Part shown: positions 3,278 through 53,426 of the stretch, piece after piece
Layout: each line of letters begins with the position of its first letter
Position numbering within the stretch: the first letter of the stretch is position 1
Assembly (NCBI RefSeq): GCF_031253835.1
Contig: NZ_JAIRVP010000068.1
Source: Burkholderia sp.
Lineage (GTDB): Bacteria > Pseudomonadota > Gammaproteobacteria > Burkholderiales > Burkholderiaceae
Direction: 5' to 3' (one strand)
DNA length: 64,000 nt
Program-made: the position numbers and the translations under genes
Notes under the pieces: generated by a model
What the model was told of the DNA's origin: nothing
Databases searched by the model: none
The model's input: only the letters and a program-made list of their open reading frames with translations

Positions 3278-3292
3278 TGCCGACGCGCGGGT

Positions 3293-8662: not shown

Positions 8663-8839
8663 ACGCGTCGCGCGGCGCACACCCATTTTTACGACGAACG
8701 CACGCACCGCATGCCAAATTTCCCGCGCAGCAGTATGCTGGTGTCGTACGGCTGCGCACTGTGCGTCGGGTAATCCCTTCGTTCGCACGTGATCGCGCCG
8801 CCGTCGCGACCGCAATCATGCGTTGCAAGGAGGGTTGTG

Positions 8840-9193
8840 ATGGCTACCACGCATCAGCACTTCCACCTCGAACTACGGCACGCCACCGCGCCGACGTACT
8901 TCATCAGTTACCTGTTCCCCGCCTTGCTGTTCGCATACGAACTGCTGCGCGTCGGCCAGTGGATCCGCGATCACGGGATGCAATTCGCCGCGTTCAAGCA
9001 GATGGGTTACGAGTATCTGCTGATGCTGCTGTTCGTCGGGCTGCAGATCGTCGTCGAGGCGATCTTCCTGCTCGGCGCCGCGATGCGCCGCGACAATCGC
9101 GACTTCGAGCACCGGCTGCCGAACGTGATCCTCGGCATCGGCTGCTCGATCGCGATACTCGCGCTCGATCTCGCGATCCAGCTGTCGTTCTGA
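8840..9193 (+). CDS. Small integral membrane protein (117 aa), hypothetical
   Basis: A strong SD (AGGAGG) sits 6 nt upstream of the ATG. The protein MATTHQHFHLELRHATAPTYFISYLFPALLFAYELL... predicts 3-4 TM helices. Confidence 0.5.
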   Translation: MATTHQHFHLELRHATAPTYFISYLFPALLFAYELLRVGQWIRDHGMQFAAFKQMGYEYLLMLLFVGLQIVVEAIFLLGAAMRRDNRDFEHRLPNVILGIGCSIAILALDLAIQLSF

Positions 9194-9227
9194 CGGCCGG
9201 CGGGCCCGGCCCGCCGGTTGCCGGCGC

Positions 9228-10025
9228 TCAGGCGCCCGCGTCGCGCAGGCACGTCGCGATGGCGGCCAGCACGTCGTCCGTCCGCTCGCGGTGCGGCATG
9301 TGCCCGCACCTTGCGAGCAGCAGGAACGACGACGGCCCCGCGACACGCGCGGCGATCCGCTTCGGATGCACGTCGGATCCGTACTCGTCGTCTTCGCCGT
9401 GAATCGCGAGCGTCGCGCACTGCACGCGCGGCAGGTCGTCGTCGAGATTCCATTCGCGGAAGGCCGGCGACAGCCACGTGTCGACCCATGCGCGCAGCAC
9501 CCATTCGGCCTTGTCGCCGTGATAGCGCGCGAGCCGGTCGAGTTGCCCCGGTTCGTCGAATTGCTGCCCCGCCGCGCGAATGCCCGCCAGCGTGCGATCC
9601 TCGACGAACGCCTGCGCGGCGACCGTCACGAGCGCGCGGCAGCGATCGGGATGCGCGGCCGCACAGCCCACCGCCATTCCGCCGCCGACGCTGTGTCCGA
9701 ATGCGACGAACGCATCGACACGCAGTTGCTCGAGCACCGCAGCGAACGCATGATCGGCCTCGTCGCGCACGAACGTCGTGCCGAGCGCGCCGGGATGACG
9801 ATCCGAGCGGCCGAAGCCGAGGCGATCGTAGGCGATCACGTCGCGCTGCGCGGCACGCGCGAGTTGCCCGGGAAAGTCGCGCCACAGATCGACGCAGCCG
9901 AGCGAATCGTGCAGCAGCACGATGGGTGCTGCCGCGCCCTGCGCCGGATGCGCACGCCAGCGTTTCGCAAAGAGCCGCCCTTGCGGCGTCTCGACGGTTG
10001 TCTCCTCGGTCACGATATCGGTCAT
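9228..10025 (-). CDS. Alpha/beta hydrolase fold protein
   Basis: It carries the HGG-like motif PIVLLHDSLG and the nucleophile elbow GHSVGGG, and it ends ...ARCGHMPH. Confidence 0.85.
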   Translation of the reverse strand: MTDIVTEETTVETPQGRLFAKRWRAHPAQGAAAPIVLLHDSLGCVDLWRDFPGQLARAAQRDVIAYDRLGFGRSDRHPGALGTTFVRDEADHAFAAVLEQLRVDAFVAFGHSVGGGMAVGCAAAHPDRCRALVTVAAQAFVEDRTLAGIRAAGQQFDEPGQLDRLARYHGDKAEWVLRAWVDTWLSPAFREWNLDDDLPRVQCATLAIHGEDDEYGSDVHPKRIAARVAGPSSFLLLARCGHMPHRERTDDVLAAIATCLRDAGA

Positions 10026-10134
10026 GGGTCGGTCGTCTGCGTGAAAGCGGCCGCACACCGGCGGCCGCATCGAATCGGGACATGGTGGCCTGCCGGCGCG
10101 CGCAGCGTCAAGCAAGCCCCTACGGCCCGCGCGT

Positions 10135-11052
10135 TCATTCGGGCTGCGGCGGCAGGTACTCCATCTGCGCTTCGTCGTACAGCCGGTAGATCAGCGCCTG
10201 CATCGCGCGGATGTCCTCCGATTCGTCGAGCATCCGCATGCTCATGATGATCGGCGACACGAGGTTCGGATCGTCGAGCGGCTTGTAGCTGATGTCGTCG
10301 CGCTTCAGCCCGTACACGCTGTGCGGCACGACCGATACGCCCTCGCCCATCGCGACGAGGCCGAGCGCGATCTGCAGTTCGCGCGTCTCGTAGATCCGGC
10401 GCGGCTGCAGCGCGCGATCGTGGAAGGCTGCGAGCACCTGGTCCGCATAGCTCGGGCGCGGCGCCTTCGGGAAGATGATCAGCGTGTCGTTCACGAGATC
10501 GTGCAGCGACAGCACGGGCTTCGCGCTGTCGAGCACATGGCCGACCGGCAGCGCGACGATCATCCGCTCCTCGCGCAGCACGACGCGCCGCACGCTCGGA
10601 TCCTCGTGGCGGATGCGCCCGAACCCGACGTCGATGCGCCCTTCCTTCAGCGCCTTGATCTGGTCCATCGTCGACATCTCGTGCAGGCTCAGCTCGACGG
10701 CCGGATACTCGCTGCGAAAGCGCCGGATGATCTTCGGCAGCATCCCGTACAGCGTCGAGCCGACGAAACCGACCGACATGCTGCGCTCGATCTTGCCGAC
10801 CCGCTTCGTCATCGATTCGAGTTCGGTCGTCTGCGCGAGCAGCTGCACCGCATGCGAATAGAAGAAGCGCCCCGCATCGGTCAGCTTCAGCGGCCGCGCG
10901 TTGCGCTCGAACAGCGGCACGCCGAGCGCCTCCTCGAGCTGCTGGATCTGCCGGCTCAGCGGCGGCTGCGCGATATGCAGCCGTTCCGCCGCGCGCGTGA
11001 AATTCCGCTCTTCGGCCACCGCGACGAAGTAGCGGAGGTGTCTCAACTCCAT
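10135..11052 (-). CDS. LysR-family transcriptional regulator, CatR/ClcR-like
   Basis: The N-terminus MELRHLRYFVAVAEERNFTRAAERLHIAQPPLSRQIQQLEEALGVPLFER is the CatM/BenM/CbnR-type HTH. Confidence 0.9.
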   Translation of the reverse strand: MELRHLRYFVAVAEERNFTRAAERLHIAQPPLSRQIQQLEEALGVPLFERNARPLKLTDAGRFFYSHAVQLLAQTTELESMTKRVGKIERSMSVGFVGSTLYGMLPKIIRRFRSEYPAVELSLHEMSTMDQIKALKEGRIDVGFGRIRHEDPSVRRVVLREERMIVALPVGHVLDSAKPVLSLHDLVNDTLIIFPKAPRPSYADQVLAAFHDRALQPRRIYETRELQIALGLVAMGEGVSVVPHSVYGLKRDDISYKPLDDPNLVSPIIMSMRMLDESEDIRAMQALIYRLYDEAQMEYLPPQPE

Positions 11053-11218
11053 TTTGATGTCTCCCGGGCAGCGCTCCGGCGCAAACCGCCGCCGGACGAT
11101 GTCGTCACGATACCGCACGCGGCGCCCGCCGCCACGCGCCGCCCAAAGCAAAACGGGAAGCCCGCGAGCTTCCCGTTGCTTCATCGACGCCGTGCGGCGA
11201 TGACGTCACGACCGCGCG

Positions 11219-11464
11219 TCACACCTCGGTCGCGTAGAGCGCATCGCGCTGCGCGTGGCTCAGCGAGTCGAGCGGCACGTCCGGCAGCTGGTAGCAGATC
11301 ATCGTGCCGTACAGCTCGGCGAGACAGTTGCTGCCGGCGTCGAGCGCGTAGCCGTCTTCGCCGTCGGGCGCCGGCGGGTACACTGCGCGCCACGCGTTGA
11401 TCGCGGCTTCGATTCGCACGATGGAAACGGGTCCGGCCTTCCGCTCGGCGGGTGATGCGCTCAT
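11219..11464 (-). CDS. Hypothetical small protein (81 aa)
   Basis: It is an internal start within an ORF-track ORF (MSASPAERKAGPVSIVRIEAAINAWRAVYPP...). Codon usage is typical for this genome and I recognise no domain. Confidence 0.35.
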   Translation of the reverse strand: MSASPAERKAGPVSIVRIEAAINAWRAVYPPAPDGEDGYALDAGSNCLAELYGTMICYQLPDVPLDSLSHAQRDALYATEV

Positions 11465-11728
11465 GGATTCCTCTGGGTTGCGCGCTCCGCGGGCCGTGCC
11501 GGCCCGGATGGAACGATGAAAACGCCGGGCAGGCCGCCGGCCGTCGCGCGCCGCGCGCGCCGGATGCCGATCCGCGCCGCGCCTGTCGCGCCGGCCGGGC
11601 CGTGGCCCGGTAGGGTCGGGCAATATAACCGGCTTTGACCCCGTGCAGGCAAAAGCCGGGCAAAAAAAACGGGAAGCACGCGGCTTCCCGTTTCGTCGAC
11701 CGCCGCGCGGCTGCCTGCCGCGCCTGCG

Positions 11729-13264
11729 TCAGCCCGCGGTTTCGCGGTTCGCCACCGGCTGCTGCTGTGCGCCGCGGCTCGCGGCGATCCACGGCGCGAT
11801 CTCCATGTCTTCGTAGCGCACGAAGCGGCTCTTCTTCAGGAACCGGAAGCCGAGCCAAACGACGAGGAACAGCGGAATGCCGACGTAGGTCGCGGCGACG
11901 CCGGCCCAGTCGATCCGGTTCGCGAGGAACGCCTGGTAATCCTGGCCGAGCGCGATCACGAGGCACAGCACGAACGCGAACAGCGGGCCGAACGGGAACC
12001 ACTTCGACTGGTACGGCAGCTGGTCGAGCGAATAGCCCTGCTTCACGTAGCCCTTGCGGAACCGGTAATGGCTGACCGCGATGCCGAGCCACGCGATGAA
12101 GCCCGTCATCCCCGACGTGTTCAGCAGCCACAGATAGACGGTCTTGTCGCCGTACAGCGACGTGAAGAAGCACAGCGCGCCGACCGCGGTGGTCGCGTAC
12201 AGCGCATTGCGCGGCACGCCGCCCGCCGACAGCATCGCGAACACCTTCGGCGCGCGGCCTTCGGTCGCGAGGGTGTAGAGCATCCGCGTCGACGCGTACA
12301 TGCCCGAGTTGCCGGCCGACAGCACGGCCGTCAGGATCACCGCGTTCATCACGCCGGCCGCGAACGCGAGGCCTGCGTGGCGGAACACGAGCGTAAACGG
12401 GCTCACGCCGATGTCGGTCACGTCCGTCTTCAGCAGGTTCGGGTCGGTATAGGGAATCAGCACGCCGATCACGAAGATCGCGAACACGTAGAACAGCAGG
12501 ATCCGCCAGAACACCTGGCGCACCGCGCGCGGAATCGTCGTGCGCGGGTTTTCCGATTCGCCGGCCGCGACGCCGATCAGCTCGGTGCCCTGGAACGAGA
12601 AGCCCGCGATCATCGCGACGCCCATCAGCGCCGGCAGGCCGCCCGCGAACGGCGCGTCGCCGATCGTCAGGTTGCCCCAGCCGTTGCCCGGCGCGCCCTT
12701 CAGAATGCCGAAGATCATCAGCAGGCCGACGCCGATGAACGCGACCACGGTGACGACCTTGATCAGCGCGAACCAGTATTCGGCTTCGCCAAAGCCGCGC
12801 ACGGTGAGCGCGTTGAGCAGGAACATCACGCCGAGGAAGGCCGCGCTCCACCACACGCCCGGCACGTCCGGAAACCAGTAGTGCATCACGAGCTGCGCGG
12901 CGACGAGCTCCACCGCGATCGTCACGGCCCAGTTGTACCAGTAGTTCCAGCCGAGCGCGAAGCCGAAGCCTTCGTCCACGTATTTCGCGCCGTAGGTCGC
13001 GAACGAGCCCGACACCGGCATGAACGCGGCCATCTCGCCGAGGCTCGTCATCAGGAAGTACACCATCAGGCCGATCAGCATGTACGCGACCATCGCGCCG
13101 CCGGGGCCGGCCTGCGAGATCGACGCGCCGGACGCGACGAACAGGCCCGTGCCGATCGAGCCGCCGATGGCGATCATCGTCAGGTGGCGCGCCTTCAGCG
13201 CGCGATGAAGCTTGGGTGGGTTCGCGGACGAACCGGGTGGGTCGGAATTCGGAATTGCGGACAT
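11729..13264 (-). CDS. lysP: Lysine-specific permease (APC family amino-acid transporter)
   Basis: From the internal start MSAIPNSD...KLHRALKARHLTMIAIGGSIGTGLFVASGASISQAGPGGAMVAYMLIGLMVYFLMTSLGEMAAFMPVSGSFATYG the protein is near-collinear with E. coli LysP along the whole length. Confidence 0.9.
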   Translation of the reverse strand: MSAIPNSDPPGSSANPPKLHRALKARHLTMIAIGGSIGTGLFVASGASISQAGPGGAMVAYMLIGLMVYFLMTSLGEMAAFMPVSGSFATYGAKYVDEGFGFALGWNYWYNWAVTIAVELVAAQLVMHYWFPDVPGVWWSAAFLGVMFLLNALTVRGFGEAEYWFALIKVVTVVAFIGVGLLMIFGILKGAPGNGWGNLTIGDAPFAGGLPALMGVAMIAGFSFQGTELIGVAAGESENPRTTIPRAVRQVFWRILLFYVFAIFVIGVLIPYTDPNLLKTDVTDIGVSPFTLVFRHAGLAFAAGVMNAVILTAVLSAGNSGMYASTRMLYTLATEGRAPKVFAMLSAGGVPRNALYATTAVGALCFFTSLYGDKTVYLWLLNTSGMTGFIAWLGIAVSHYRFRKGYVKQGYSLDQLPYQSKWFPFGPLFAFVLCLVIALGQDYQAFLANRIDWAGVAATYVGIPLFLVVWLGFRFLKKSRFVRYEDMEIAPWIAASRGAQQQPVANRETAG

Positions 13265-38394: not shown

Positions 38395-39120
38395 ATGACA
38401 CCCACCGCGAAGCTTGCGCTGCTCACGTTACCGCCCGTGCTGGCGGCCTGTTTCGGCGCGCTCGCGGCCGCGTGGCGCGCGCCCGGCCCGAAGACGTCGA
38501 GCGTCATCCAGCACTTCACCGGCGGCATCGTGTTCGCGGCCGCGGCGCTCGAACTGCTGCCGCAGGACCGCGCGCATGCGCTGTTTCCGGTCGTCGTCGG
38601 GTTCGTGCTCGGCATCGCGCTGATGCTCGCGATCCGGGCGCTGTCGGGCGCGATCGAGACGCGCTACGAGGAAGCGCGGCTGCCCGTGAGCCTGATCGTC
38701 GTCACCGCGATCGACCTCGTCGTCGACGGCCTCGTGCTCGGCATCGCATTCTCCGCCAGCGACGAAAGCGGCATCATCCTGACCGTCGCGCTGACGCTCG
38801 AAGTGCTGTTCCTCGCGCTGTCGGTCAGTGCGGCGCTCGCCGCCGCAGGCATCGGCCGCATGCTGTCGATCGTCGTGCCGGTCGGACTCGCGGCGCTGCT
38901 GAGCATCGCGGCCGTAGCCGGCAACGCGGCGTTTGCCGGCCTGCCGGCGAATATCTACGCGGCGCTGCTGGGGCTCGGCACCGTCGCGCTGCTGTACCTC
39001 GTGACCGAGGAACTGCTCGTCGAGGCGCACGAGGTGCCCGAAACACCGTTCGCGACGGCCGCGTTCTTCATCGGCTTCATCGTGTTCTTCCTGATCGAAG
39101 GGTCGGTCAAGGCCGGCTAA
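38395..39120 (+). CDS. ZIP-family divalent metal (zinc) transporter
   Basis: Eight TM helices are predicted. The metal-binding motif is HFTGGIVFAAAALELLP, and the sequence contains ...EELLVEAHEVPETP. Confidence 0.85.
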   Translation: MTPTAKLALLTLPPVLAACFGALAAAWRAPGPKTSSVIQHFTGGIVFAAAALELLPQDRAHALFPVVVGFVLGIALMLAIRALSGAIETRYEEARLPVSLIVVTAIDLVVDGLVLGIAFSASDESGIILTVALTLEVLFLALSVSAALAAAGIGRMLSIVVPVGLAALLSIAAVAGNAAFAGLPANIYAALLGLGTVALLYLVTEELLVEAHEVPETPFATAAFFIGFIVFFLIEGSVKAG

Positions 39121-39134
39121 GCCTTGCGCGGCGG

Positions 39135-39638
39135 CTACCACGTCGTCGCGCCCGTCGGAAACGTGTCGACGATACGCGTGCCGTTCACCGGCGTGACGCC
39201 CTCGTTGCGCAACGCAGCCCACAGGTCGATCGCATGTTCGCGCGACTTGCGGCTGCCGTCGTCGGTCAGCACATTCAGTGCGATGACTTCGTCCCGCGTG
39301 GTCAATTGCAGCTGTTCCTTCAGCTTGCGCGACTGATGCGACGCGGTACGGACATCGCCGAGCACGATCCGCTTCTCCGTCATCGTCGACTCGCCGCCGC
39401 CATCGGCCGGCACGAACGTCAGCCGGCCGTTGTCGACCTCGCATTGCCCGCGCGTGAACGTCGCGGTCCACGCGCCAGCCGGCACGGCCGCGAATTCGCA
39501 GCGCATCCGCTCGTTCGCACGGCTGCCGGCGTCATGCGCCGGCGCGTGCGACAGCGCACGTTCCGGCCAGCCGGCCGCCATCGCGGCCGTCGACATCAGG
39601 CACGCCGCCAGCACGATTCCTTTCACGATATTGCGCAT
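39135..39638 (-). CDS. Secreted hypothetical protein (167 aa, with a signal peptide)
   Basis: The protein MRNIVKGIVLAACLMSTAAMAA has a signal peptide and contains no domain I recognise. Confidence 0.55.
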   Translation of the reverse strand: MRNIVKGIVLAACLMSTAAMAAGWPERALSHAPAHDAGSRANERMRCEFAAVPAGAWTATFTRGQCEVDNGRLTFVPADGGGESTMTEKRIVLGDVRTASHQSRKLKEQLQLTTRDEVIALNVLTDDGSRKSREHAIDLWAALRNEGVTPVNGTRIVDTFPTGATTW

Positions 39639-39704
39639 GACACGCTCCTTTCCACATGGGGATACGGCCGACGCGCATCGCGCCGTCCGGCCGTGAATGA
39701 ACGA

Positions 39705-39980
39705 TCAACGAACCGCAAGGCGGTTGTCGTGCGCGTCGACCCTCGGCACCTGCTCGCCGCGGTGAACGGTCGAGCGATGGATTTCCTGATTCCGCGCGAC
39801 AGCAGCCGGGCTCGCCGGGTAATCGTGATTCGGGCTCGGGATCACGCCGTCGTGGCGCGCGCGCACCAGTTCCTGACGGACTTCCTGCCGGGTCTTGGAT
39901 TGGGCGGCCACGGCCTGTGAGAAGGCCGCAATCGACAGTGCGGCAACGGCGATGGCGATCATCGGTCGCGGAATATTCAT
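39705..39980 (-). CDS. Small secreted protein of the DUF4148 family (paralog A, 91 aa)
   Basis: The internal start MNIPRPMIAIAVAALSIAAFSQAVAAQ is a signal peptide. The conserved block is KTRQEVRQELVRARHDGVIP...YP...VARNQEIH..VHRGE..P..DAHDN. Confidence 0.65.
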   Translation of the reverse strand: MNIPRPMIAIAVAALSIAAFSQAVAAQSKTRQEVRQELVRARHDGVIPSPNHDYPASPAAVARNQEIHRSTVHRGEQVPRVDAHDNRLAVR

Positions 39981-40057
39981 GTTGTTCGCTCCTTGCTGGA
40001 AATCCGTGACGGGAGCCTTCACTGTGAGCCGGCGCCGGTGCGGAATCGTGATCGCAG

Positions 40058-40081
40058 CATGACGGTTTCGTCACCGTCATG
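40058..40081. promoter_or_regulatory. Palindrome CATGACGGT-ttcgtc-ACCGTCATG located upstream of DUF4148 paralog A
   Basis: It is a perfect 9-bp inverted repeat about 80 bp upstream of the start at 39980. It shares the core ATGACGGTTnCGTCA with the site at 43058-43076. Confidence 0.45.
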
Positions 40082-40295
40082 GCATCTGCTGCGTCGCAGT
40101 ACGAACGAAATTCCTCGCTTGATTCGTTGCACATGACACGGCGATGACATTTTTCTCATTTGTCCCTCACCTCCACGATCCGAACGCTTTCCAGAATCGC
40201 CAGCGCGATCTCGATATTCCGGCCCGCCACCGCAAGGCTCCGCACCGGAATCGAGCGATCCACGAAACGATCTTCTTGAACCTCAGGGGCACACC

Positions 40296-41456
40296 ATGAA
40301 AACTCCAGTTCGGCTCGTCATGATGTCGGGTACGCTGCTCGCGGCCACTCACGCGGCGCATGCGACGGAAGTCACGCTGTACGGCCTGTTCGATACGTCG
40401 CTCACGTACGTGTGGAACGCCAGCGCGGACGGCAAGAATCTCGTCGGCCTCGGCAACGGCAACCTGCTCGGCAACCGCTTCGGCGTGAAAGGCGCGGAAG
40501 ACCTGGGCGGCGGGCTGAAAGCGATCTTCACGCTGGAAAACGGCTTCAACCCGAACACCGGCGAACTCGGCCAAGGCAAGCGGATGTTCGGCCGGCAGGC
40601 GTTCGTCGGCCTCGAGAGCGCGCGCTGGGGCACGCTGACGCTCGGCCGCCAGTACGATGCGCTCGCGGACGTCGCCTGGCCGGTCACCGGCGACTTCTAC
40701 TTCGGCAGCGTGTACGCGACACCCGGCGACGTCGACAACTACGACACGTCGTCGCGCACCGACAACGCGGTGAAGTACACGTCGCCCATAATCAGCGGCT
40801 TCCAGTTCGTCGGCATGTACGCGCTCGGCGGCGTGGCCGGCAAGAGCGGCGCGGGCCAGACCTGGTCGGCCGGGCTGTCGTACAGCAACGGCCCGGTCGA
40901 CGCCGCGGGCGGCTACTACTACGCGGCCAACCGTTCATCGCTCGCCAACGGCATCCGCACCGGCTGGAACGGCACGTCCGACGGCACGTTCGACGGGTCG
41001 CTGGTCAACGGCGGCTACATGTCGGCAAAATCGATCGGCATCGCGCGCGGCGCGCTGCGCTACAACTTCGCGCCGTTCGCGGTCGGCATCGACTACAGCA
41101 ATGCGCTGTACAAGGCCGACGCGATGTCCGCGTTCCGCAGCACGCAGAAGTACGACACCGCGCGCGGCTTCTTCAACTATCAGGCGACGGCCAGCCTGCT
41201 CGTCGGCGTCGGCTACAGCTACACGCGTGCCCGCGGCGATACGAGCGCGACCTACCATCAAGTGTCCGCCGGCGCCGACTACGTGCTGTCGAAGCGCACC
41301 GATCTCTATGCGGTCGGCGCGTGGCAGCGGGCGAACGGCGAGCAGCGCACGCTCGACGGCGGCACGCAGACGGCGCAGGCATCGATCGGCTCGTACGGCT
41401 ACGGCGGCACGCGCACGCAGGGCATCGTCAACCTCGGGTTGCGCCACCGGTTCTAA
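40296..41456 (+). CDS. Gram-negative general porin (second paralog in the window)
   Basis: The signal peptide is MKTPVRLVMMSGTLLAATHAAHA. The protein contains TEVTLYGLFDTSLTY and ends in GLRHRF like the porin at 1272-2399. Confidence 0.9.
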   Translation: MKTPVRLVMMSGTLLAATHAAHATEVTLYGLFDTSLTYVWNASADGKNLVGLGNGNLLGNRFGVKGAEDLGGGLKAIFTLENGFNPNTGELGQGKRMFGRQAFVGLESARWGTLTLGRQYDALADVAWPVTGDFYFGSVYATPGDVDNYDTSSRTDNAVKYTSPIISGFQFVGMYALGGVAGKSGAGQTWSAGLSYSNGPVDAAGGYYYAANRSSLANGIRTGWNGTSDGTFDGSLVNGGYMSAKSIGIARGALRYNFAPFAVGIDYSNALYKADAMSAFRSTQKYDTARGFFNYQATASLLVGVGYSYTRARGDTSATYHQVSAGADYVLSKRTDLYAVGAWQRANGEQRTLDGGTQTAQASIGSYGYGGTRTQGIVNLGLRHRF

Positions 41457-41608
41457 GCACGGCGGCCAATCGTGCGCGCTGCGTGACGAAAATTTCATGT
41501 GGCGATCAGGTTCGCGATGCGCGATGCCGCTACGATCGGAACGGTAACGGGCCCTGCCCGTTGCCACCCACGCAGCGGGTCGTTGTCGCACGACACGATC
41601 ACGCGTTA

Positions 41609-41643
41609 GGCCCGGACTCGTCGAGTATCGGGCCTTTTTTTTT
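41609..41643 (+). terminator. Rho-independent terminator GGCCCG-gactcgtcgagtat-CGGGCC followed by T9
   Basis: A 6-bp GC stem is followed by TTTTTTTTT. It lies about 150 nt after the porin stop. Confidence 0.7.
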
Positions 41644-41735
41644 GCGTGGCGATTCGACACCACGTGTGCCGTGCGATGACCCGGCGATCGTCGGTGACGC
41701 TATCCTGTGACATCGCCGTTCATCCCCAGCCGGCC

Positions 41736-42647
41736 ATGCCAGACACTCAGCACGCCCTCTTCCTCCCGATCGACGCCGACCTCGTTCGATGCCTCGTTGC
41801 GCAGCAATTTCCGCAATGGCGCCACCTGGACATCATTCCCGTGCTGCCCGGCGGCTGGGACAACCGCACATTCCGGCTCGGCGACACCATGCTGGCGAGG
41901 CTCCCGAGCGCCGCGGCTTATGTCGACCAGGTCGAGAAGGAGCAGCGCTGGCTGCCGACGCTGGCCGCGCACCTGTCGCTGCCGATCCCCGCACCGGTCG
42001 CGAAGGGCGTGCCCGCCGGTTTCTATCCGTGGCCGTGGTCGGTCTATGGCTGGCTGGACGGCGAACCGGCCCGCGACGCACTGATCGACGACATGCCGGC
42101 GTTCGCACGCGCGGTGGCGGGCTTCCTGGCCGAACTGCACCGGATCGACGCGTCGGACGGCCCGCCGCCGGGCCTGCACAATTTCTTCCGTGGCGGGCCG
42201 CTATCGCTGTACGACGGTGAAACGCGCTCGGCGCTCGAAACGCTGTCGGGCTTCATCGACACCGATCGTGCGCTGGCCGTATGGGAAGCCGCGGTGAATA
42301 CCCGCTGGAACGCGGCCCCCGTGTGGATTCACGGCGACGTCGCGGCCGGCAACCTGCTGGTGAAGGACGGCACGCTGCACGCGGTCATCGATTTCGGATG
42401 CGCGGCGGTGGGCGACCCGGCTTGCGACCTCGCGATCAACTGGACCCTGTTCGACGAAGCGAGTCGCAGTGCCTTTCGTTCGACACTGTCGGTCGATACG
42501 GGAACCTGGGCGCGCGGGCGCGGCTGGGCGCTGTGGAAGGCGCTCATCACGCTCGGGAAGCTGGACGAAAGCCGGCGTGACGGCGATCCATCGAACCGCA
42601 CGATCCAGCACCTCCTGGAAGACCATCGCCGCGAACACGGACACTGA
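41736..42647 (+). CDS. Aminoglycoside/antibiotic phosphotransferase (APH)-family kinase
   Basis: The Brenner motif is IHGDVAAGNLLV and the DFG motif is IDFGCAAVGDPACD. Confidence 0.8.
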   Translation: MPDTQHALFLPIDADLVRCLVAQQFPQWRHLDIIPVLPGGWDNRTFRLGDTMLARLPSAAAYVDQVEKEQRWLPTLAAHLSLPIPAPVAKGVPAGFYPWPWSVYGWLDGEPARDALIDDMPAFARAVAGFLAELHRIDASDGPPPGLHNFFRGGPLSLYDGETRSALETLSGFIDTDRALAVWEAAVNTRWNAAPVWIHGDVAAGNLLVKDGTLHAVIDFGCAAVGDPACDLAINWTLFDEASRSAFRSTLSVDTGTWARGRGWALWKALITLGKLDESRRDGDPSNRTIQHLLEDHRREHGH

Positions 42648-42679
42648 CGGCCGACGGACCGCCCGCGACGCGGTGACGG

Positions 42680-43003
42680 TCACGGCGTGTCGATGCGTTG
42701 CGGGAACAGGCACGTATGCGTTTTCACATACAGGTTCGGGTTGCCGCAGCGGTGGCCGGCATAGTCGATCTGCTCGCCGGGCATCAGGTCGGCCGGCACC
42801 GGCTTGCGTACGGCGGCAGGCGTGGCCGCGGGCGTACCGGGACGTGTCGACACGCAGCCCGCGAACAACGGGACGATCAGGACTGCGATCAAGGCTGAAC
42901 GGATAACGGGACGATCCACTTTTCGGTCCGGAATGAAAGTCTGAACAGGGCCGCCCGCTTTCCATGCTGCTGTCGCGAACGGCACGCATGCCGTCGGCGA
43001 CAT
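42680..43003 (-). CDS. Putative lipoprotein; the start is uncertain (an alternative non-ATG start nearer the lipobox is likely)
   Basis: A lipobox-like sequence ...RSALIAVLIVPLFAGCVSTRPG lies within the ORF. The ATG-defined N-terminus is too long for a signal peptide. Confidence 0.35.
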   Translation of the reverse strand: MSPTACVPFATAAWKAGGPVQTFIPDRKVDRPVIRSALIAVLIVPLFAGCVSTRPGTPAATPAAVRKPVPADLMPGEQIDYAGHRCGNPNLYVKTHTCLFPQRIDTP

Positions 43004-43057
43004 CGGCCATCGGCAGACTTCATGTTCCGCTTCCCGCTCGTCGCGCGCATGACGCGA

Positions 43058-43076
43058 ACATGACGGTTGCGTCATG
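43058..43076. promoter_or_regulatory. Palindrome ACATGACGGTTGCGTCATG located upstream of DUF4148 paralog B
   Basis: It lies about 140 bp upstream of the start at 43216 and shares the same ATGACGGTTnCGTCAT core as the site at 40058. A partial extra half-site CATGACGCG sits 10 nt upstream. Confidence 0.45.
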
Positions 43077-43215
43077 TCGGTCAGGTCTCAACGACGCGCT
43101 GCCTGCTTGCGCAATCTGACGATTTTTTCATCTCGCGATCACGATCACGCACGGCTGCTTTCGCATACTGGATCCATGGTTCGCCACCCGGCGACCTGAT
43201 CAAGGAGAGCACTCG

Positions 43216-43503
43216 ATGAAAACGGCAAAACTCGCAGCACTGTTCGTCACCGCCACGCTGTCGCTCGGCATGGCCACGCAAGCCGCATTCGCGGAAACGC
43301 AAACGCAGGGCAAGACCCGCACGCAGGTCGTCAACGAACTGAAGCAGGCGCAGCACGACGGCGTCGTGCCGGCGGGCAAGACGCAATATCCGCCGACCGG
43401 CGAGATGGTCGCGCGCAACAAGGAGCTTCACGGGATTTCGGTGCACGGCGGCGAGAAGAAGCCGCAGGCCGACAACCACGACAACCTGACCGCGCGGCAA
43501 TGA
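43216..43503 (+). CDS. Small secreted protein of the DUF4148 family (paralog B, 95 aa)
   Basis: The signal peptide is MKTAKLAALFVTATLSLGMATQAAFA. The conserved block is KTRTQVVNELKQAQHDGVVP...YP...VARNKELH..VHGGE..P..DNHDN. Confidence 0.7.
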   Translation: MKTAKLAALFVTATLSLGMATQAAFAETQTQGKTRTQVVNELKQAQHDGVVPAGKTQYPPTGEMVARNKELHGISVHGGEKKPQADNHDNLTARQ

Positions 43504-43582
43504 CGCTCGGCCACACGACCGCAGGCAGCGCGCCGCGCGCGGCCGCCATATGGCGAACGCGCGAGCGTGCCCGCCCGCGGTG

Positions 43583-45015
43583 TCAGGTGCTGGTGGCCGC
43601 CGGCCGGTTCGGCTCGGCCGGCCGTCTCGGGAAGCGCAGCCAGAACGTCGTGCGCCGGCCGGGATCGCTGTCGACGCCGCATTCGCCGCCGTGATTGTCC
43701 ATGATCGACCGGACGATCGCGAGGCCGAGCCCCGTGCCCGACGCGGAATTGTGCCGCGACGGATCGACGCGATAAAAACGCTCGAAGATCCGCCCGACAT
43801 GCTCCGCGGCAATGCCGGGCCCCGTATCCGACACGGCGATCGTCGTCGCGCCGCGCTGCTCGACGCAATCGATCGTCACGACGCTGCCGCGCGGCGCATA
43901 GGTCAGCGCATTCGACAGCAGGTTGCTCAACGCCCGCTGGTACAGCGTCAGGTCCGCATCGACCCACGCGTGGCCATCGACCTTCACCGTCACGCCCTCG
44001 TCTTCCGCAAGCGGCTCGTAGTAGCCGGCCACCCGCTCCGCCTCCTCCGCCGCATTCAGGCGCCGCACGCCGATTGACGTGCCGGCCTGTTCCGAGCGCG
44101 CGAGGAACAGCATGTCCTCGATCATCCGCGACAAGCGCTGGTATTCGTCGATGCTCGACTCGATCACGTTCCGGTATTCGTCCGCGCTGCGCGGCTGCGA
44201 CAGCACGACCTGCGCGGCTGCCTGCAGGTTCGTGAGCGGCGTGCGCATGTCGTGCGCGAGATTCGACGAGAACTGGCTCAGCCGCGTGAACGACTCGTTC
44301 AGGCGTTCGAGCATCCCGTTGAACGCATGCTCGAGTTCCTTCAGCTCGCCGGATGTATCGAGTTCCGGCAGCGGATGCGCCAGCCGGCTCGTCGACATCT
44401 GCTCGGCGCGCGCCGCGAAGCGCCTTAGCGGGCTCAGCCCGAGCGCCGCGATGCCGTACGCGATCGCGGCCGCGAGCACCACGCCGAACACCTCGATCAC
44501 GACGATCGTATAGGCATGCGTGCGCAGCAGCAGGACATCCGCGCTGCGGTCGTACTGCACCGCGACGCGCACCACCGGCGCACCCGCTCCCGCGCCGCCG
44601 CCGACCAGCGGCACATTCGTCACCAGATACTGGTGCCGCAAGCCGGGCGGTGCGACGCCGACCGGCACGCGCCCCGCGTTCAGCGACATCAGCGGCGCAT
44701 ACGGGCGGAAGCCGGGCGTGCCGACGAGGCGTGTGCCCGTGGCATCGAAGATCGCGAGATCCATGTTCGGATGGCCATGCAGCTGGTCGATCCAGATGTC
44801 GGTGTTGCGTGCGACGTCGATCGTCGTGCGCGCCTCGGCCAGATGCGCGCCCAATGCGGCGGAAATGCCGGCCATCTGCTCGGCCGCCGTCGTTTCGACG
44901 CGATTGCTCAGTGCTTCGTACAGGGCGACACCGCTCGACGCGAGAATCACCGATGTCGACAGGATGATCAGCGCGGTCAGGCGTCCACGCAGCGTGCGCG
45001 GCAGCAGGCGCGCGA

Positions 45016-45019
<4 letters not shown>
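43583..45019 (-). CDS. czcS: Heavy-metal sensor histidine kinase
   Basis: The protein has two TM helices, a HAMP domain, the H-box [10 protein letters not shown] and an HATPase_c domain (GTGLGLAIV). The start overlaps czcR by 4 nt. Confidence 0.85.
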
Positions 45020-48968
<3,949 letters not shown>

Positions 48969-49036
48969 TCACGCAACGGGCCGGAAAGCGGGCCGCATAT
49001 CGGGCCGCGAGTCGGGCAACGGCGCACACGTAACGC

Positions 49037-50506
49037 TCATTCATGTTCGGCGCTCCCCTTGCCGAGTTCGGCCTTCAGCACGAAGCTGTTCGACGCCGCG
49101 TATTCCTGGCCCGCCTTGAGCCCCTTCAGCACCTCGGTCGCACGCTCGTCGCGACGCCCGGTTTCGACGGCCTGCGCGACGAAGCCCTTCGGCGAGCGCA
49201 CGAACACCGACGGCGCGCCGTCGACGTCCTGCAGCGCGTCGCTCGCCACCGCGAGCGGCACACCCTGCTTGCCCGCGTCGACCGACACGTTCACGAACAT
49301 CCCCGGGCGCCACACGCCGTCCGGGTTCGGCAGCACGACCCGCGCCGGTGCGGTGCGCGTCTGTTCGCCGAGCAGCGAGCCGACGTACGCGATCGGGCCG
49401 CTCGAACGCGATTCGAACGCGGTCGCGATCACGGTCGCGTCGCGGCCGACGCGCACGTCGTTCAACCGCTGCGCCGGCACGGCCATCTCGGCCCACACGG
49501 TCGACAGGTCGGAGATCACGAACATGCTCGCGTCGGCGGCGATCGCCTCGCCGGGTGTCGCATGCTTCTCGACGATCGTGCCGGCGAACGGCGCGCGCAG
49601 CTCGTAGCGATTCAGCGCGCCCGCGCCGACCGGCGCGTTCAGCGCGGCGAGCTTCTGTCGCGCGTTCTGCACGGCGATCTCGGCCTCGCGCAACTGCACC
49701 TGCGCCTGCTGGTAGTCCTGCTCGGCCGAGATGCGCTCCTTCCACAGCGTGCGTTCGCGCTCGTAGGTCGCCCGCGCGCCCGACAGCCGGCGCTCGGCCG
49801 TCAGCAGTTCGCTGCGGCGGTCGGCCAGATCGGTGCTGGCGATCACGGCGAGCACCTGCCCCTTCGCGATGTTCTGCCCGAGCGAGACCGACACCTGCTC
49901 GACGATGCCGGCCACGCGCGGCACCACGTGCGCGGTGCGGTCCTCGTTGAACTTGATCTCGCCCGGCAGTTGGAACGGCGTCGCGATCTGCGCGGGGCCG
50001 GCCTTCGCGAGCGCGATCTTCGACGTCGCCAGCTGTGCGTCGGTCAGCGCGATCGCGCCGTCGGCGCGCGCGAACGGGAACGACGCGGCGTCGTTGCCGG
50101 CCTTCACGTCGATCGTCGTGTCGAACACGTGCGGCTTCGCGATCGACTGCGCGGACACGAACTTCTGGCCCGATGCGTCGAAACGCAGCGGCTCGTGCGT
50201 GCGGTCGTAGCGCACCAGCGTGCCGGAGACCGTCACACCCTTGTCGGCCGGCTTGCCGTCGACGAACGGATAGACGACGAGCCGTGCATCGCCAGGTTTT
50301 TCCGTCATCACGATCTCGACGGACAGCTTGCCGCGCTTAAGCACGACACCGCCGTGCGCGCCGGCGCCATCGGCCGGCTGCGCGGCTTCCGCGCCCGCAG
50401 GCGCCGAGGGGTTGCTCCCGCTCCGGGTAACGGCGAGCGCGCCGATCACGATCCCTGCGCCGCCGAGCACGGCCGCCGCGATAACGAAGATTCTGCTGCG
50501 TGACAT
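49037..50506 (-). CDS. czcB: RND efflux membrane-fusion (periplasmic adaptor) protein
   Basis: It carries a signal/TM anchor, an HlyD-like coiled-coil (LTAERRLSGARATYERERTLWKERISAEQDYQQAQVQLREAEIAV) and beta-barrel domains. Confidence 0.9.
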   Translation of the reverse strand: MSRSRIFVIAAAVLGGAGIVIGALAVTRSGSNPSAPAGAEAAQPADGAGAHGGVVLKRGKLSVEIVMTEKPGDARLVVYPFVDGKPADKGVTVSGTLVRYDRTHEPLRFDASGQKFVSAQSIAKPHVFDTTIDVKAGNDAASFPFARADGAIALTDAQLATSKIALAKAGPAQIATPFQLPGEIKFNEDRTAHVVPRVAGIVEQVSVSLGQNIAKGQVLAVIASTDLADRRSELLTAERRLSGARATYERERTLWKERISAEQDYQQAQVQLREAEIAVQNARQKLAALNAPVGAGALNRYELRAPFAGTIVEKHATPGEAIAADASMFVISDLSTVWAEMAVPAQRLNDVRVGRDATVIATAFESRSSGPIAYVGSLLGEQTRTAPARVVLPNPDGVWRPGMFVNVSVDAGKQGVPLAVASDALQDVDGAPSVFVRSPKGFVAQAVETGRRDERATEVLKGLKAGQEYAASNSFVLKAELGKGSAEHE

Positions 50507-50532
50507 GATGATCCTTCAGGTAAGAGGGGCGC

Positions 50533-51846
50533 TTATTGCGCGACGGCCGCGAGCGGCGTGCCGACGAGCCGGCCGATATCGGCGCGGGCCGAATGGGCGT
50601 CGGCGAGCGCGCGCACGTATTGCGACTGCCCCTGGAACAGCGTGCGCTGTGCATCGAGCACGTCGAGGAAGCTGAACTTCCCGAGTTCGTAGCCGCGCGA
50701 CATCGCGTCGAGCGCGAGACGCGCGGCCGGCAGGATGTCGGACTTCAGCCGCTGCGCTTCCTGCTCGGCGGCCTCGAAATTCGCGTAGGCCTGCGTGAGC
50801 GCCAGCCGCAGGCGCGTGCGTTCGCGATCGAGATCGGCGTTCGCGCGCTCGGCCTTGTGCGTCGCCTCGAGCAGCGCGCCCTTGTTCGTGTTGAACAGAG
50901 GAATCGGGATCGACACGCCGACCACGGCCTGGTTGTCGGGCACGCCGCCGGTCGTCACGCGCTTCACGCCCGCGCTGACCGTCACGTCCGGAATGCGCCG
51001 TGCACGTTCGAGCGACACGGCCGCGTTCGAGCGCAGCATCTCGGCGCGCGCGACCCGCGCGAGCGGTGAATCGTCGAGCTGCGCGGTCAGCGCGGACAGC
51101 GGCTCGACCGGCGGCACGGCTTCCAGGTCGCCGAGCACCGCGAGCCGGTCGCCGCGCGCTTCGCCCATCACCGCGTTCAGCTTCTCGCGCGCGACCTCGA
51201 CCTTGCCGCGTGCGGTCACGACTTCGATCTGCACGCCGGCCGCCGCCACCTGCGCCTTCGTCGCCTCGACCGGCGACACCTTGCCGGCCTGTGCGCGGCG
51301 CGCCGCAAGATCCGCCGAGCGCGCGGCGATCGCGGCCGATTCCTCGGTGACCTGAAGCTGCCGCTGCGCGGCGAGCAGCCCGTAGAACGCAGCAATCACG
51401 TCGGCGCGCACGACGGCGCCCTGCTCGTCGAGCGACGCGCTGGCCGACTCGCGGCCATACGACGCGACGTCGAGCCGCGCGCGGCGCTTGCCGCCCAGCT
51501 CGATGGTCTGGTTGATCAGCGCGGTCGACGTGCGCTCGGCGCGGCTGAAACCTTCCTGCAGGAACGACACCTCGGGATTGGGGCGCGCACCGGCCTGCAT
51601 CAGCGCGCCGGCCGATGCATCGACGTCCGCGCGCGCGCCGCGCAGCGCCGGATTGTTCCGGGCCGCGACGGCGAGTGCATCGGGAAGCGTCAGCGATGGG
51701 GAAGGAAGTGCGCCGGATGGCGGTGCGTCGGCCGGTGCGGCAGGGCCTGCGGCAGCAGGAGTCGGCCCCGGCGACAGCGACGGCTGCGCATAAGCCGTCG
51801 CGGCCATCGCGAAGGCGACGGCCACGGCGAGAGAGAGCTTGAGCAT
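50533..51846 (-). CDS. czcC: Outer-membrane efflux protein (TolC family)
   Basis: It has a signal peptide MLKLSLAVAVAFAMAATAYAQ and two OEP repeat halves. Confidence 0.9.
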   Translation of the reverse strand: MLKLSLAVAVAFAMAATAYAQPSLSPGPTPAAAGPAAPADAPPSGALPSPSLTLPDALAVAARNNPALRGARADVDASAGALMQAGARPNPEVSFLQEGFSRAERTSTALINQTIELGGKRRARLDVASYGRESASASLDEQGAVVRADVIAAFYGLLAAQRQLQVTEESAAIAARSADLAARRAQAGKVSPVEATKAQVAAAGVQIEVVTARGKVEVAREKLNAVMGEARGDRLAVLGDLEAVPPVEPLSALTAQLDDSPLARVARAEMLRSNAAVSLERARRIPDVTVSAGVKRVTTGGVPDNQAVVGVSIPIPLFNTNKGALLEATHKAERANADLDRERTRLRLALTQAYANFEAAEQEAQRLKSDILPAARLALDAMSRGYELGKFSFLDVLDAQRTLFQGQSQYVRALADAHSARADIGRLVGTPLAAVAQ

Positions 51847-52244
51847 GTTCGGTTCTGCGGTAACGGTTTGCGACCGATGCTACGGTCGGGCCGCAGTGCG
51901 AACATGAGGCGAAGATGATATTTCCGTCATGTTGGGCGCGGCTGTACTCGTTGAACCGGCGTGTGTATCTGCCCGGACACTCGTCTGTACGTGGCGTCTA
52001 AGCGCTCGCATACGATCCGATGATGTCATCACATTTCACCGGACTCGCCGCGGCGCTTTCGACCACTCGATTCGGTCACGTCATAAAGAAGATTTTCTAT
52101 TTCAAATTTTCGAACAAGTTCTATAGACACATTCACTCGGAAGGATGATTTTCGACGTTCATGCAACACGAATGGAGCCATGCTTTTTATGACCTCAATG
52201 TCATGCAGCATCCTTGAAAATCGACACACCGAGACTTCGAATCA

Positions 52245-52961
52245 ATGAAATACTTCTCCAATCCAAACGATTACGACTTTGACGCCGGCGAAGACAAAGA
52301 ATGGTTTCTCGTTCACTCCGGGGCCGTCACCAACACCACTCCGAGATCGATGGTTCATGTTTACATCAACACAACACCCATTTGCCCCAACATGACCAAC
52401 AGAGAATTTAGAATTATGGTGGCAAGACTACTCAAATGGTCCATCATTCTAGTTGAACGCAGGATCGCAGATCTGAAACGATTCGACGAAACAATCAAGG
52501 ATAGAATGATCTACTGGTTCAATCGATGCGATGAAAACACACGACAATATCTTGTCAATGGATTCTCACGACATCTCTCCGTTCTCAAAACGCTAACGCC
52601 ACATCACTTCGTTCGAAGCGATCCGAGCCTCGATCGAATGTTAGGCTGCGTCCCGAACTTGGGCGACATCGAGAATGAAGCCGCTCACGTTTGCGGACCC
52701 AATACGGAGCGTAGGCTCATCAGTATCGCGATGAAATTTTGCACAGGCTTACGCGATCAGAATATGTTCGGAGACTCCCGTCTATCCACGCTGATTCACG
52801 AAGTCACTCACTTCGTCGACACCTTCGGTAGCGGCGACCCTCGTTACGGGCTCGATCCCACAGCGGCTGCGTGGGCAAGGGCCAATCCCGACCAGGCATT
52901 GAGGAATGCGGATACACTCACAGGATTCGTGATCTACGGCGAATATTTATTTCCGGAATAA
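52245..52961 (+). CDS. Aspzincin-type zinc metalloprotease (M35/deuterolysin-like zinc site), with no signal peptide
   Basis: The sequence LIHEVTHFVDTFGSGDPRYG has HExxH followed 9 residues after the second His by the Asp of GxxDxxYG, which is the exact aspzincin geometry. The gene lies on a low-GC island. Confidence 0.6.
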   Translation: MKYFSNPNDYDFDAGEDKEWFLVHSGAVTNTTPRSMVHVYINTTPICPNMTNREFRIMVARLLKWSIILVERRIADLKRFDETIKDRMIYWFNRCDENTRQYLVNGFSRHLSVLKTLTPHHFVRSDPSLDRMLGCVPNLGDIENEAAHVCGPNTERRLISIAMKFCTGLRDQNMFGDSRLSTLIHEVTHFVDTFGSGDPRYGLDPTAAAWARANPDQALRNADTLTGFVIYGEYLFPE

Positions 52962-52976
52962 GGGGCCGAATTCAGC

Positions 52977-53426
52977 ATGAGAATTTTCATCACTTCATTA
53001 ATCGCGCCTATCGTAACGTCGCTCCTTTTCCCCGCAATTTCTTCGGCTGCATGCCAAGGATCACAGAATCTACCATCACAGCAATTTTTCGTGACCTTCC
53101 CCCGCGACAGTCACGAAATCTCCGAATCCGAGAAAATACGAATTGGGCGATGGGTTTCAGCAATGAATTCCGGGCATCCAATTCAAAACTGGGTCACTAT
53201 AATTGGGAGCGCTTCCAAGATTGAGGACGATCCGGAACGACTTGCAACGAAACGAGCTTCCGCGGTGGCGAAAGTCGTCATAGACGACGGCCTGATAAAC
53301 GCACCGCTTCAGATAAAAACGCAAATTTATCCAGCCAGCAGTGCAGCCGGATCGACGTCGGAAACACGTGAAGTCACCATTCAAGTGAGCCCCGGCTGCC
53401 TCGACAACTGCTGTACCGGCCATTGA
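52977..53426 (+). CDS. Small secreted protein (149 aa) adjacent to the metalloprotease; weak OmpA-C-like pattern
   Basis: The signal peptide is MRIFITSLIAPIVTSLLFPAISSAACQG. It is co-oriented with the protease gene 16 nt downstream and shares the same low-GC composition. Confidence 0.5.
   Translation: MRIFITSLIAPIVTSLLFPAISSAACQGSQNLPSQQFFVTFPRDSHEISESEKIRIGRWVSAMNSGHPIQNWVTIIGSASKIEDDPERLATKRASAVAKVVIDDGLINAPLQIKTQIYPASSAAGSTSETREVTIQVSPGCLDNCCTGH

Follow-up and report, generated by a model that had tools for sequence, protein, structure and literature searches.

Two DUF4148 genes of a Burkholderia metal-efflux island share a predicted operator that probably belongs to the island's own IrlR/CzcR-type response regulator

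Two small genes for exported proteins of DUF4148, a family largely restricted to Burkholderiales and with no known function, lie in a 64,000-nucleotide stretch of Burkholderia sp. DNA (contig NZ_JAIRVP010000068.1, hereafter the window). Each has a conspicuous palindrome upstream, and the question that this locus raises is which regulator reads these palindromes, and to what end. An earlier note on this DNA had proposed that one dimeric regulator controls both genes, and had held that neither this regulator nor the function of the protein family is known. As far as the biochemical function of DUF4148 is concerned, that statement still holds. A candidate for the regulator can be named, as the palindromes are probably operators of the IrlR/CzcR-type response regulator of the OmpR family encoded in the same genomic island (45016-45702). 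Their layout is, in fact, that of the CusR, PcoR, CopR and CzcR boxes, and a TIGR01387 regulator and its kinase adjoin the second DUF4148 gene. The genes in question are the following.

39705-39980, minus strand: DUF4148-1 coding sequence, 91 aa, with a signal peptide and the HDG...ARN..H block (Pfam PF13663, 46.3 bits)
43216-43503, plus strand: DUF4148-2 coding sequence, 95 aa (Pfam PF13663, 49.1 bits), convergent with the sensor kinase gene
43583-45013, minus strand: heavy-metal sensor histidine kinase gene of the IrlS/CzcS type (TIGR01386, 489 bits against a cutoff of 292.6)
45016-45702, minus strand: heavy-metal response regulator gene of the IrlR/CzcR type, the proposed operator binder (TIGR01387, 333.4 bits against a cutoff of 279.2)
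45699-51846, minus strand: efflux genes of the czcCBA type, resistance-nodulation-division (RND) family (TIGR00914, 1705 bits; CzcB/NccB and TolC-family matches), with czcC at 50533-51846, czcB at 49037-50506 and czcA at 45699-48911, all on the minus strand

That the two open reading frames (ORFs) are DUF4148 paralogs, as had been proposed from inspection of the letters, was confirmed by profile search, both scores standing above the Pfam gathering threshold for this family (27 bits), and by an identity of 41% over 93 residues (E 3e-23). Public-database homologs are annotated as DUF4148 domain-containing proteins. The signal peptides and the conserved block described for the pair could also be verified: both ORFs carry Sec-type signal peptides, with AxA cleavage motifs AVA/AQ and AFA/ET (read by eye, cleavage at the slash), and the block KTRxxVxxELxxAxHDGxxP..YP..ARNxExH..VHxGE..P..D.HD is kept in 98 unique relatives. 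Members of the family have been described as small exported proteins of 90-113 aa whose signal peptide is embedded in the domain (PMC7549894), a description that both ORFs fit with their 91 and 95 aa and hydrophobic N-termini. The predicted transcription start of DUF4148-1 precedes the ATG at 39980, but not the GTG further upstream, at 40022.

Palindrome A (CATGACGGTTTCGTCACCGTCATG, 40058-40081) and palindrome B (CATGACGGTTGCGTCATG, 43059-43076, a perfect 7-4-7 repeat) share the exact 15-mer ATGACGGTTnCGTCA. Their common core, TGACR-N6-TCAT, occurs eight times at seven places in the window against 0.74 expected, a count reached by none of 100 shuffles, and all of these occurrences are intergenic and fall between 40.0 and 52.2 kb. 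The element extends further, to TGACR-N6-TCAT-N7-TCA, which amounts to three T[GC]A[CT] units placed 11 bp apart; the window holds six exact copies of this extended form (seven if one mismatch is tolerated, for which 0.29 would be expected), and each of the six faces a transcription unit. The first two units form a dyad by themselves, TGAC being the reverse complement of GTCA, and this symmetry is reinforced at back-to-back promoters. The predicted sites and their -10 hexamers are listed here, with scores, where given, in bits.

40049-40073, minus strand: predicted DUF4148-1 operator, TGACGAAACCGTCAT-gctgcga-TCA, exact, overlapping palindrome A; -10-like CACAGT at 40021-40026
40134-40158, minus strand: extra strong box, TGAGAAAAATGTCAT-cgccgtg-TCA, overlapping the opposite-strand porin box; 34.4 bits, second best in the window; conserved
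40145-40169, plus strand: predicted porin operator, TGACATTTTTCTCAT-ttgtccc-TCA, exact; -10-like CAGAAT at 40192-40197, invariant in 14 unique orthologous sites
41484-41508, plus strand: predicted operator with no coding gene downstream (candidate small RNA, sRNA), TGACGAAAATTTCAT-gtggcga-TCA, exact; 23.2 bits
41531-41536, plus strand: -10 TACGAT of the candidate sRNA promoter, in 17 of 20 unique orthologous sites
43050-43074, minus strand: predicted lipoprotein operator, TGACGCAACCGTCAT-gttcgcg-TCA, exact, containing palindrome B; 30.8 bits
43022-43027, minus strand: -10-like GAACAT of the lipoprotein promoter, in 25 of 31 unique orthologous sites
43117-43141, plus strand: predicted proximal operator of DUF4148-2, TGACGATTTTTTCAT-ctcgcga-TCA, exact
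43164-43169, plus strand: -10 CATACT of the DUF4148-2 promoter, in 26 of 39 unique orthologous sites
51905-51929, minus strand: predicted czcC operator, TGACGGAAATATCAT-cttcgcc-TCA, exact; box 68-85 bp upstream of czcC
51877-51882, minus strand: -10 TAGCAT of the czcC promoter, in 37 of 41 unique orthologous sites

At all six promoters a -10-like hexamer stands exactly 32 bp after TCAT, and transcription is predicted to begin about 7 nt past each hexamer, near 40014, 43015 and 51870 on the minus strand and near 40204, 41543 and 43176 on the plus strand. The 32-bp spacing tells the two palindromes apart. Palindrome A is DUF4148-1's own promoter box, whereas the fixed-distance -10 of palindrome B is on the opposite strand, toward the lipoprotein gene. 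Palindrome B, which lies 140 bp from each of the start codons at 42919 and 43216, is more likely the lipoprotein promoter box, and possibly also an upstream auxiliary site for DUF4148-2. In 11 other genomes of the B. cepacia complex, ATGACGGTTTCGTCAY is conserved but the right arm of palindrome A, ACCGTCATG, is not; the 9-6-9 form of this palindrome is strain-specific. The picture drawn in the earlier note is therefore retained in part. A palindrome does lie upstream of each paralog, and both contain the shared 15-mer, but the two are not positionally equivalent, as DUF4148-2 has a box of its own at 43117-43141. Similarly, the shared operator could be bound by a dimer-forming regulator, and the paralogs are, judged in silico, probably co-regulated, but a simple palindrome describes the site less well than three phased units 32 bp from a -10. 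The search pattern that had been suggested, ATGACGG-N3-6-CCGTCAT, would miss most sites of the set, and the motif does not define a regulon specific to DUF4148, as the same operator precedes czcCBA-irlRS, the porin gene, the lipoprotein gene and the candidate sRNA. A scan of 39600-43600 for consensus sigma-70 promoters gave zero matches, as would be expected of activator-dependent promoters that lack a -35, and an Rfam scan of 39000-44000 gave no riboswitch or known sRNA that could account for the palindromes.

A position matrix was built from 37 unique czcC promoter sites only, with no DUF4148 sequence in training, czcC being the only gene that one would expect in advance to be a target of the adjacent regulator. 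When the 64 kb were scanned with it, czcC (55 bits) and the other island sites (34, 31, 23, 18, 12 and 11 bits) were the top matches, the best unrelated site in the window scored 3.0, and in fifty simulated windows the highest score averaged 2.2 and never exceeded 10.9. The two weakest island sites, at 11.7 and 11.1 bits, are thus barely above simulation. One further site, a core-only match at 52189-52203 on the minus strand (TGACATTGAGGTCAT), has a poor matrix score and lacks the third unit.

To judge how general this arrangement is, motif, geometry, enrichment, conservation and linkage were also computed over 80 loci centred on relatives of the regulator in Burkholderia, Paraburkholderia and Caballeronia. 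Over the 1.54 Mb of these loci, the core occurs 342 times and the extended form 241 times, where Markov simulations give about 20 and about 1, respectively. A hexamer nAnnnT is found at exactly +32 after TCAT in 93% of the unique extended sites (203 of 218), while other offsets each account for at most 17; conversely, when TCAT-N7-TCA-N22-nAnnnT alone is used as anchor, 91% of 230 unique sites have TGAC at the phased left unit. With DUF4148 starts set by anchoring on the conserved TRxxV motif, an exact box oriented to the gene lies within 300 bp of 84 of the 117 DUF4148 ORFs in these loci, and in 68 of those 84 it ends 70-89 bp from the start codon. The boxless ORFs fall into two groups: those of another subtype, which lack the HDG...ARN..H block, and several orthologs in which TCAT-N7-TCAY and the -10 are retained and the left unit is degenerate. 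Against the background of 436 kb of flanking DNA, the 54 full-length czc-type loci have 189 sites in the island and 7 in the flanks, and 5 of these 7 precede DUF4148 genes.

Conservation follows the sites rather than their surroundings. The DUF4148-1 operator is conserved in 12 aligned genomes with variable flanks; the box and -10 of DUF4148-2 are invariant from Burkholderia to Paraburkholderia, where the flanks cannot be aligned; and, with both intergenic regions aligned, boxes and -10 hexamers are invariant while spacers vary. The box is found upstream of czcC in 57 loci. Of 64 czc-type loci, about 55 have an ortholog of DUF4148-2 behind the kinase gene, and czcCBA, regulator, kinase and convergent DUF4148 gene recur together in about 55 loci of three genera. 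Loci of paralogous regulators that lack czcCBA (L065-L079) have the same box type, located just after the kinase gene, and in one of them (L072) the box directly precedes a same-strand DUF4148 gene. Too few loci were informative on whether box variants covary between the promoters of czcC and DUF4148-2.

The linkage of these sites to a particular regulator is close. The regulator gene overlaps czcA, so that regulator, kinase and the three pump genes form one operon of five genes; regulator and kinase genes lie 80 bp to 2.5 kb from DUF4148-2, the regulator about 1.5 kb away; and the conserved island has no gene for any other DNA-binding protein. The protein is 99% identical (226 of 227 residues) to that of plasmid pBMUL01, which RefSeq names heavy metal response regulator transcription factor IrlR. 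The window belongs to a genome of the B. cepacia complex, and the same regulator sequence (100% identity) occurs in B. seminalis, B. cenocepacia and others. It scores under the equivalog cutoffs of CusR (298 against 420 bits) and HprR (291 against 353 bits), and is thus a relative rather than an ortholog of either.

From these data we infer binding by IrlR, activation rather than repression, the kind of inducing metal and, more loosely, the role of the DUF4148 proteins. In the proposed mechanism, the periplasmic sensor kinase IrlS would detect an excess of a divalent metal, likely Zn, Cd or Co because the pump is of the CzcCBA type, and would phosphorylate IrlR. Phosphorylated IrlR would then bind the three 11-bp-phased units of TGACR-N6-TCAT-N7-TCA, the proximal unit standing where the -35 would be, in a promoter that possesses only a -10, and would recruit RNA polymerase in a PhoB-like manner. 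Six promoters would thereby be switched on together, namely those of czcCBA-irlRS, of DUF4148-1 with a 167-aa exported protein, of the porin, of the sRNA of about 100 nt, of the lipoprotein and of DUF4148-2; at czcCBA-irlRS, IrlR would provide both efflux and autoregulation. Because their promoters share the proposed IrlR operator, the DUF4148 paralogs would be envelope proteins of the metal-stress response.

The operator type and regulatory logic are, in themselves, conventional and known already. Published boxes include those of E. coli pcoE/CusR (TGACAAnnTTGTCAT) and the CusR palindrome AAAATGACAAnnTTGTCATTTT, as well as CTGACAn5GTAAT for P. aeruginosa CopR (all in PMC11195947) and GAAACn6GTAAT for P. 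aeruginosa CzcR (PMC13209446). All sites found here, as ATGAC-N6-GTCAT or TGACR-N6-TCAT, likewise consist of two pentamers about 11 bp apart (5-6-5) with AC...GT-type cores. As in the E. coli CusR/pcoE box, the element is 15 nt long, positions 1-4 being TGAC and positions 11-15 (G)TCAT, and as with E. coli CusR, whose TIGR01387 subfamily the regulator shares, the box is part of the promoter of an RND efflux operon adjoining two-component genes, sometimes between divergent genes. Unlike in the E. coli box, the inner bases here are G/C-rich (TGACGnnnnCGTCAT), and a third unit (N7-TCA) and the fixed distance to the -10 are conserved; and whereas E. coli CusR has essentially one chromosomal target, at least six promoters belong to the present set.

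The CzcRS system of P. aeruginosa is similar in its Zn/Cd/Co-type RND pump, its autoregulated two-component system, its 5-6-5 box and the presence of a porin in the regulon (PMC13209446). CzcR acts there as an activator of czcCBA and czcRS and as a repressor of the porin OprD, with further binding close to other porin genes (PMC13209446). The half-site sequences differ from ours, however, the porin here has activation-type geometry, and the DUF4148 genes, lipoprotein and sRNA have no counterpart in the published Pseudomonas CzcR regulon. The geometry itself recalls PhoB, which activates at pho boxes by a class II mechanism in which tandem units are phased by 11 bp, the proximal unit replaces the -35 and the -10 is kept. 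The promoters described here have all three features, and differ from those of PhoB in the sequence of the unit, in having three units and in that the first two also form a dyad; head-to-tail and head-to-head arrangements are indistinguishable from sequence.

Similar systems are known from B. pseudomallei, for which our comparison relies on published descriptions. IrlRS and IrlR2S2 are likewise heavy-metal two-component genes with a DUF4148 gene (BPSS1038 and BPSS1996, respectively) immediately downstream, and the arrangement of the L072 type, with a box after the kinase gene and before the DUF4148 gene, is that described for irlR2-irlS2-BPSS1996 (PMC7549894). IrlRS has been reported to regulate Cd and Zn resistance, and BPSS1996 to be a surface-exposed virulence factor (PMC7549894), while no metal phenotype in terms of minimum inhibitory concentration was seen for IrlR2 (PMC13037405). 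The main text and one supplement of the IrlR2 paper make no mention of BPSS1996 or DUF4148 genes. The adjacency of DUF4148 and two-component genes in B. pseudomallei was published as possibly coincidental, with no operator given (PMC7549894).

Several points weigh against our interpretation and have to be set beside the evidence above. Many of the 80 loci are orthologous, so that site counts are not counts of independent events; an architecture that persists where flanks no longer align is, in our opinion, the stronger argument. The literature that we searched contains no binding or expression reports for this locus, nor any for IrlR binding in Burkholderia. The activation model, moreover, does not fit every site: two have no fixed -10, namely the box at 40134-40158 and palindrome B when read on the plus strand. 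The former may be an auxiliary site, its role being ambiguous because of the missing fixed-distance -10. The sign of regulation at the porin is uncertain, because CzcR represses OprD in P. aeruginosa (PMC13209446). It is also unlikely, yet worth considering, that IrlR binds as proposed and represses at some sites, mainly at the porin by analogy with CzcR and OprD, in which case the upstream palindromes might be auxiliary or looping sites. The behaviour of CzcR near oprD and other porin genes (PMC13209446), the promoter-dependent outcomes of binding in this family (PMC11195947) and the strong opposite-strand box at 40134-40158, which overlaps the porin box and has no fixed -10, would all agree with such a role. 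A repressor site, however, would be expected over or downstream of the -10, and the porin box has the exact 32-bp spacing of the czcC promoter to its invariant CAGAAT, which is the geometry of activation.

The identity of the binder deserves the same scrutiny. CopR, IrlR2 or another paralogous regulator could be the real or an additional binder through cross-binding, since regulators of this family share boxes, cross-bind and cross-regulate, with an outcome of binding that differs by promoter (PMC11195947), and the same box type occurs in L065-L079, where czcCBA is absent, and in a copper cluster. That a paralogous heavy-metal regulator of this kind, or an unrelated dimeric factor, binds the operator in place of IrlR, with the adjacency of irlRS incidental or a matter of cross-talk, has in our estimate a rather small chance of being correct. 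The box lies in the promoter of the regulator's own operon in 57 loci, its layout fits this regulator family and no other that we identified, and the conserved island encodes no alternative DNA-binding protein; box and irlRS also travel together on plasmids into new hosts, so that the island must carry its own regulator to work. Finally, it is true that the island is mobile, with insertion sequences flanking it on plasmids, and that palindromes are common in high-GC intergenic DNA, and the repeats could in principle be remnants of mobile or repetitive elements, or chance similarities, with no regulatory role. This we consider highly improbable in view of an enrichment of 10-fold to more than 200-fold above expectation, of the strict orientation of sites to genes with 93% of them at a fixed distance to a -10, and of their conservation in three genera while flanks diverge.

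If IrlR is indeed the regulator, the DUF4148 proteins acquire a context that they lacked. What is new, on the evidence of sequence, is that an operator is defined for a Burkholderia IrlR-type system, and that its set takes in the genes of DUF4148 proteins, of a porin and of a lipoprotein as well as a candidate sRNA; the literature searched holds no description of this IrlR-type operator set with DUF4148 genes. The sole published comment on the linkage of DUF4148 to two-component genes is that it "may be coincidental" (PMC7549894), and the operator makes this link testable, since it comes with a defined site on the DNA, with predictions of where transcription starts, with a regulator that can be named and, in Zn, Cd or Co, with a likely signal. 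As to what the proteins do, periplasmic metal binding or buffering seems the most likely function, favoured because of four conserved histidines (in HDG, ExH, VHxGE and HD) with acidic neighbours, of periplasmic export and of control by metal-sensing systems, the last step being a guess. Small exported proteins are, in fact, also found inside the efflux determinant of Cupriavidus metallidurans beside two-component genes, as CzcE, CzcI and CzcJ (PMC9045368). CusF, CopK and ZraP are further small periplasmic accessory proteins of metal resistance. DUF4148 has no sequence relationship to any of these; the likeness would be one of function, metal binding by DUF4148 being hypothetical.

Structural analysis gave few clues. 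An AlphaFold2 model of DUF4148-2 built with 23 close homologs had a predicted local distance difference test score (pLDDT) of 59.3 and a predicted template modelling score (pTM) of 0.25, too poor for a fold search, and contained only two short helices, in the mature part; such a low-confidence model (pLDDT 59) lends no support to a metal site, which counts against our reading. A profile search of solved structures found no DUF4148 relative. We would nevertheless put forward, tentatively and as a doubtful proposition at present, that HDG-type DUF4148 proteins are previously unrecognised periplasmic effectors of metal stress, acting as histidine-based binders or buffers, whose genes are wired by one operator type to IrlRS, IrlR2S2 and CopRS across Burkholderiaceae, and that the same regulator drives a switch of sRNA and porin. 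If this were true, the B. pseudomallei virulence factor BPSS1996 would be a direct output of metal sensing, and the island would be a self-contained, plasmid-mobile module of envelope remodelling rather than a simple efflux operon.

Mobility of the island gives these considerations some practical weight. From the gene for the 167-aa protein via both DUF4148 genes to czcC, it moves as a unit, with the same sites, on conjugative plasmids of B. multivorans, B. contaminans, B. vietnamiensis and other hosts. Plasmid pBMUL01 (L081) and a B. contaminans plasmid (L083), both conjugative and of MOBF/MPF_F type, have the complete island (167-aa protein, DUF4148, porin, lipoprotein, DUF4148, irlSR, czcABC), which on pBMUL01 lies between insertion sequences and adjoins a P-type ATPase gene. 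Among 37 plasmid records that encode a DUF4148-2 relative, 14 were typed as conjugative. DUF4148 proteins are thus placed in a compact, often plasmid-borne set of metal-stress genes, and the plasmid-borne czc module extends past the pump to two DUF4148 proteins, a porin, a lipoprotein, an exported protein and a candidate sRNA, which bears on the co-selection of metal resistance and envelope permeability in clinical strains of the B. cepacia complex.

An HDG-type DUF4148 gene also closes the copper-resistance cluster of B. pseudomallei plasmid p1 (L082, 5700-6160), which comprises TolC, copA, a copper-binding protein, copC and copD (a copABCD cluster). This gene has its own promoter, separated by a terminator, with the box TGACCAAAAGATCAT-N7-TCAC followed by CAGAAT, and a palindromic box, TGACCAAAATTTCAT, is seen at the head of the cluster (positions 23-38). 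In loci of paralogous regulators that lack czcCBA, the same box precedes a gene for a beta-carbonic-anhydrase-like protein, a zinc enzyme (L071, L072, L076, L078 and L079, around positions 2359-12194), and, in L035 at 1621, one for a SulP-like transporter; these boxes hint at a wider zinc-related set for this regulator family.

The remaining genes of the predicted set in the window are as follows.

39135-39638, minus strand: 167-aa exported protein, 66 bp downstream of DUF4148-1 on the same strand, synteny conserved
40296-41456, plus strand: porin gene, 386 aa (Pfam Porin_4, E 4.8e-43), conserved in the island, plasmids included
41543-41643, plus strand: candidate sRNA of about 100 nt with three hairpins, terminator at 41609-41634 followed by nine T
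42680-42919, minus strand: 79-aa lipoprotein, GTG start, lipobox LFAGC (read by eye), Cys/His-rich motif HRCGNPNLYVKTHTC

The 167-aa protein is probably co-transcribed with DUF4148-1, and in loci where DUF4148-1 is deleted (L069, for example) the box lies directly upstream of its gene. The lipoprotein gene, divergent from DUF4148-2, is kept beside it in about 45 loci. Both genes appear to be under the same predicted operator, and neither product matched a Pfam family. Twenty-five unique sequences of the B. cepacia complex preserve the candidate sRNA, with 1-nt indels that break the frame. Its consensus structure has 26 pairs, 4 of them with compensatory changes, and its minimum free energy is -44.6 kcal/mol (z -3.6). 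The terminator scan missed its terminator because the loop exceeds the limit of the tool, and in Rfam its only match was anti-hemB, at 22.1 bits against a gathering threshold of 49.5 (E 0.066). A seed region could be provided by CCACCCACGC(A)AGCGG, which is conserved and unpaired; a search of the window for targets complementary to the unpaired CCACCCACGCAGCGGG gave nothing above chance.

A few observations concern the surroundings of these genes. In the predicted 5' untranslated region of DUF4148-2, just before the ribosome-binding site AAGGAG, a conserved hairpin TCGCC-ACCC-GGCGA (43183-43200, plus strand) shows compensatory changes in Paraburkholderia orthologs, such as CTGCC...GGCAG. A gene of the APH (aminoglycoside phosphotransferase) family (41736-42647, plus strand; Pfam E 5.8e-43) separates the sRNA candidate from the lipoprotein gene; it is a recent insertion into the island, because among the 80 related loci it is found only in that of B. 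aenigmatica (L010). On the other side of the 167-aa protein gene, a ZIP-like metal transporter gene (38395-39120, plus strand; Pfam Zip, 32 bits, just under the 35.1 cutoff) lies beside the island in many loci and has no box, so that an importer adjoins an exporter island. Past the czcC promoter, the DNA turns AT-rich (52000-53000), which may mark the island boundary, and the ORF at 52245-52961 encodes a metallopeptidase of the Aspzincin_M35 type (39.6 bits).

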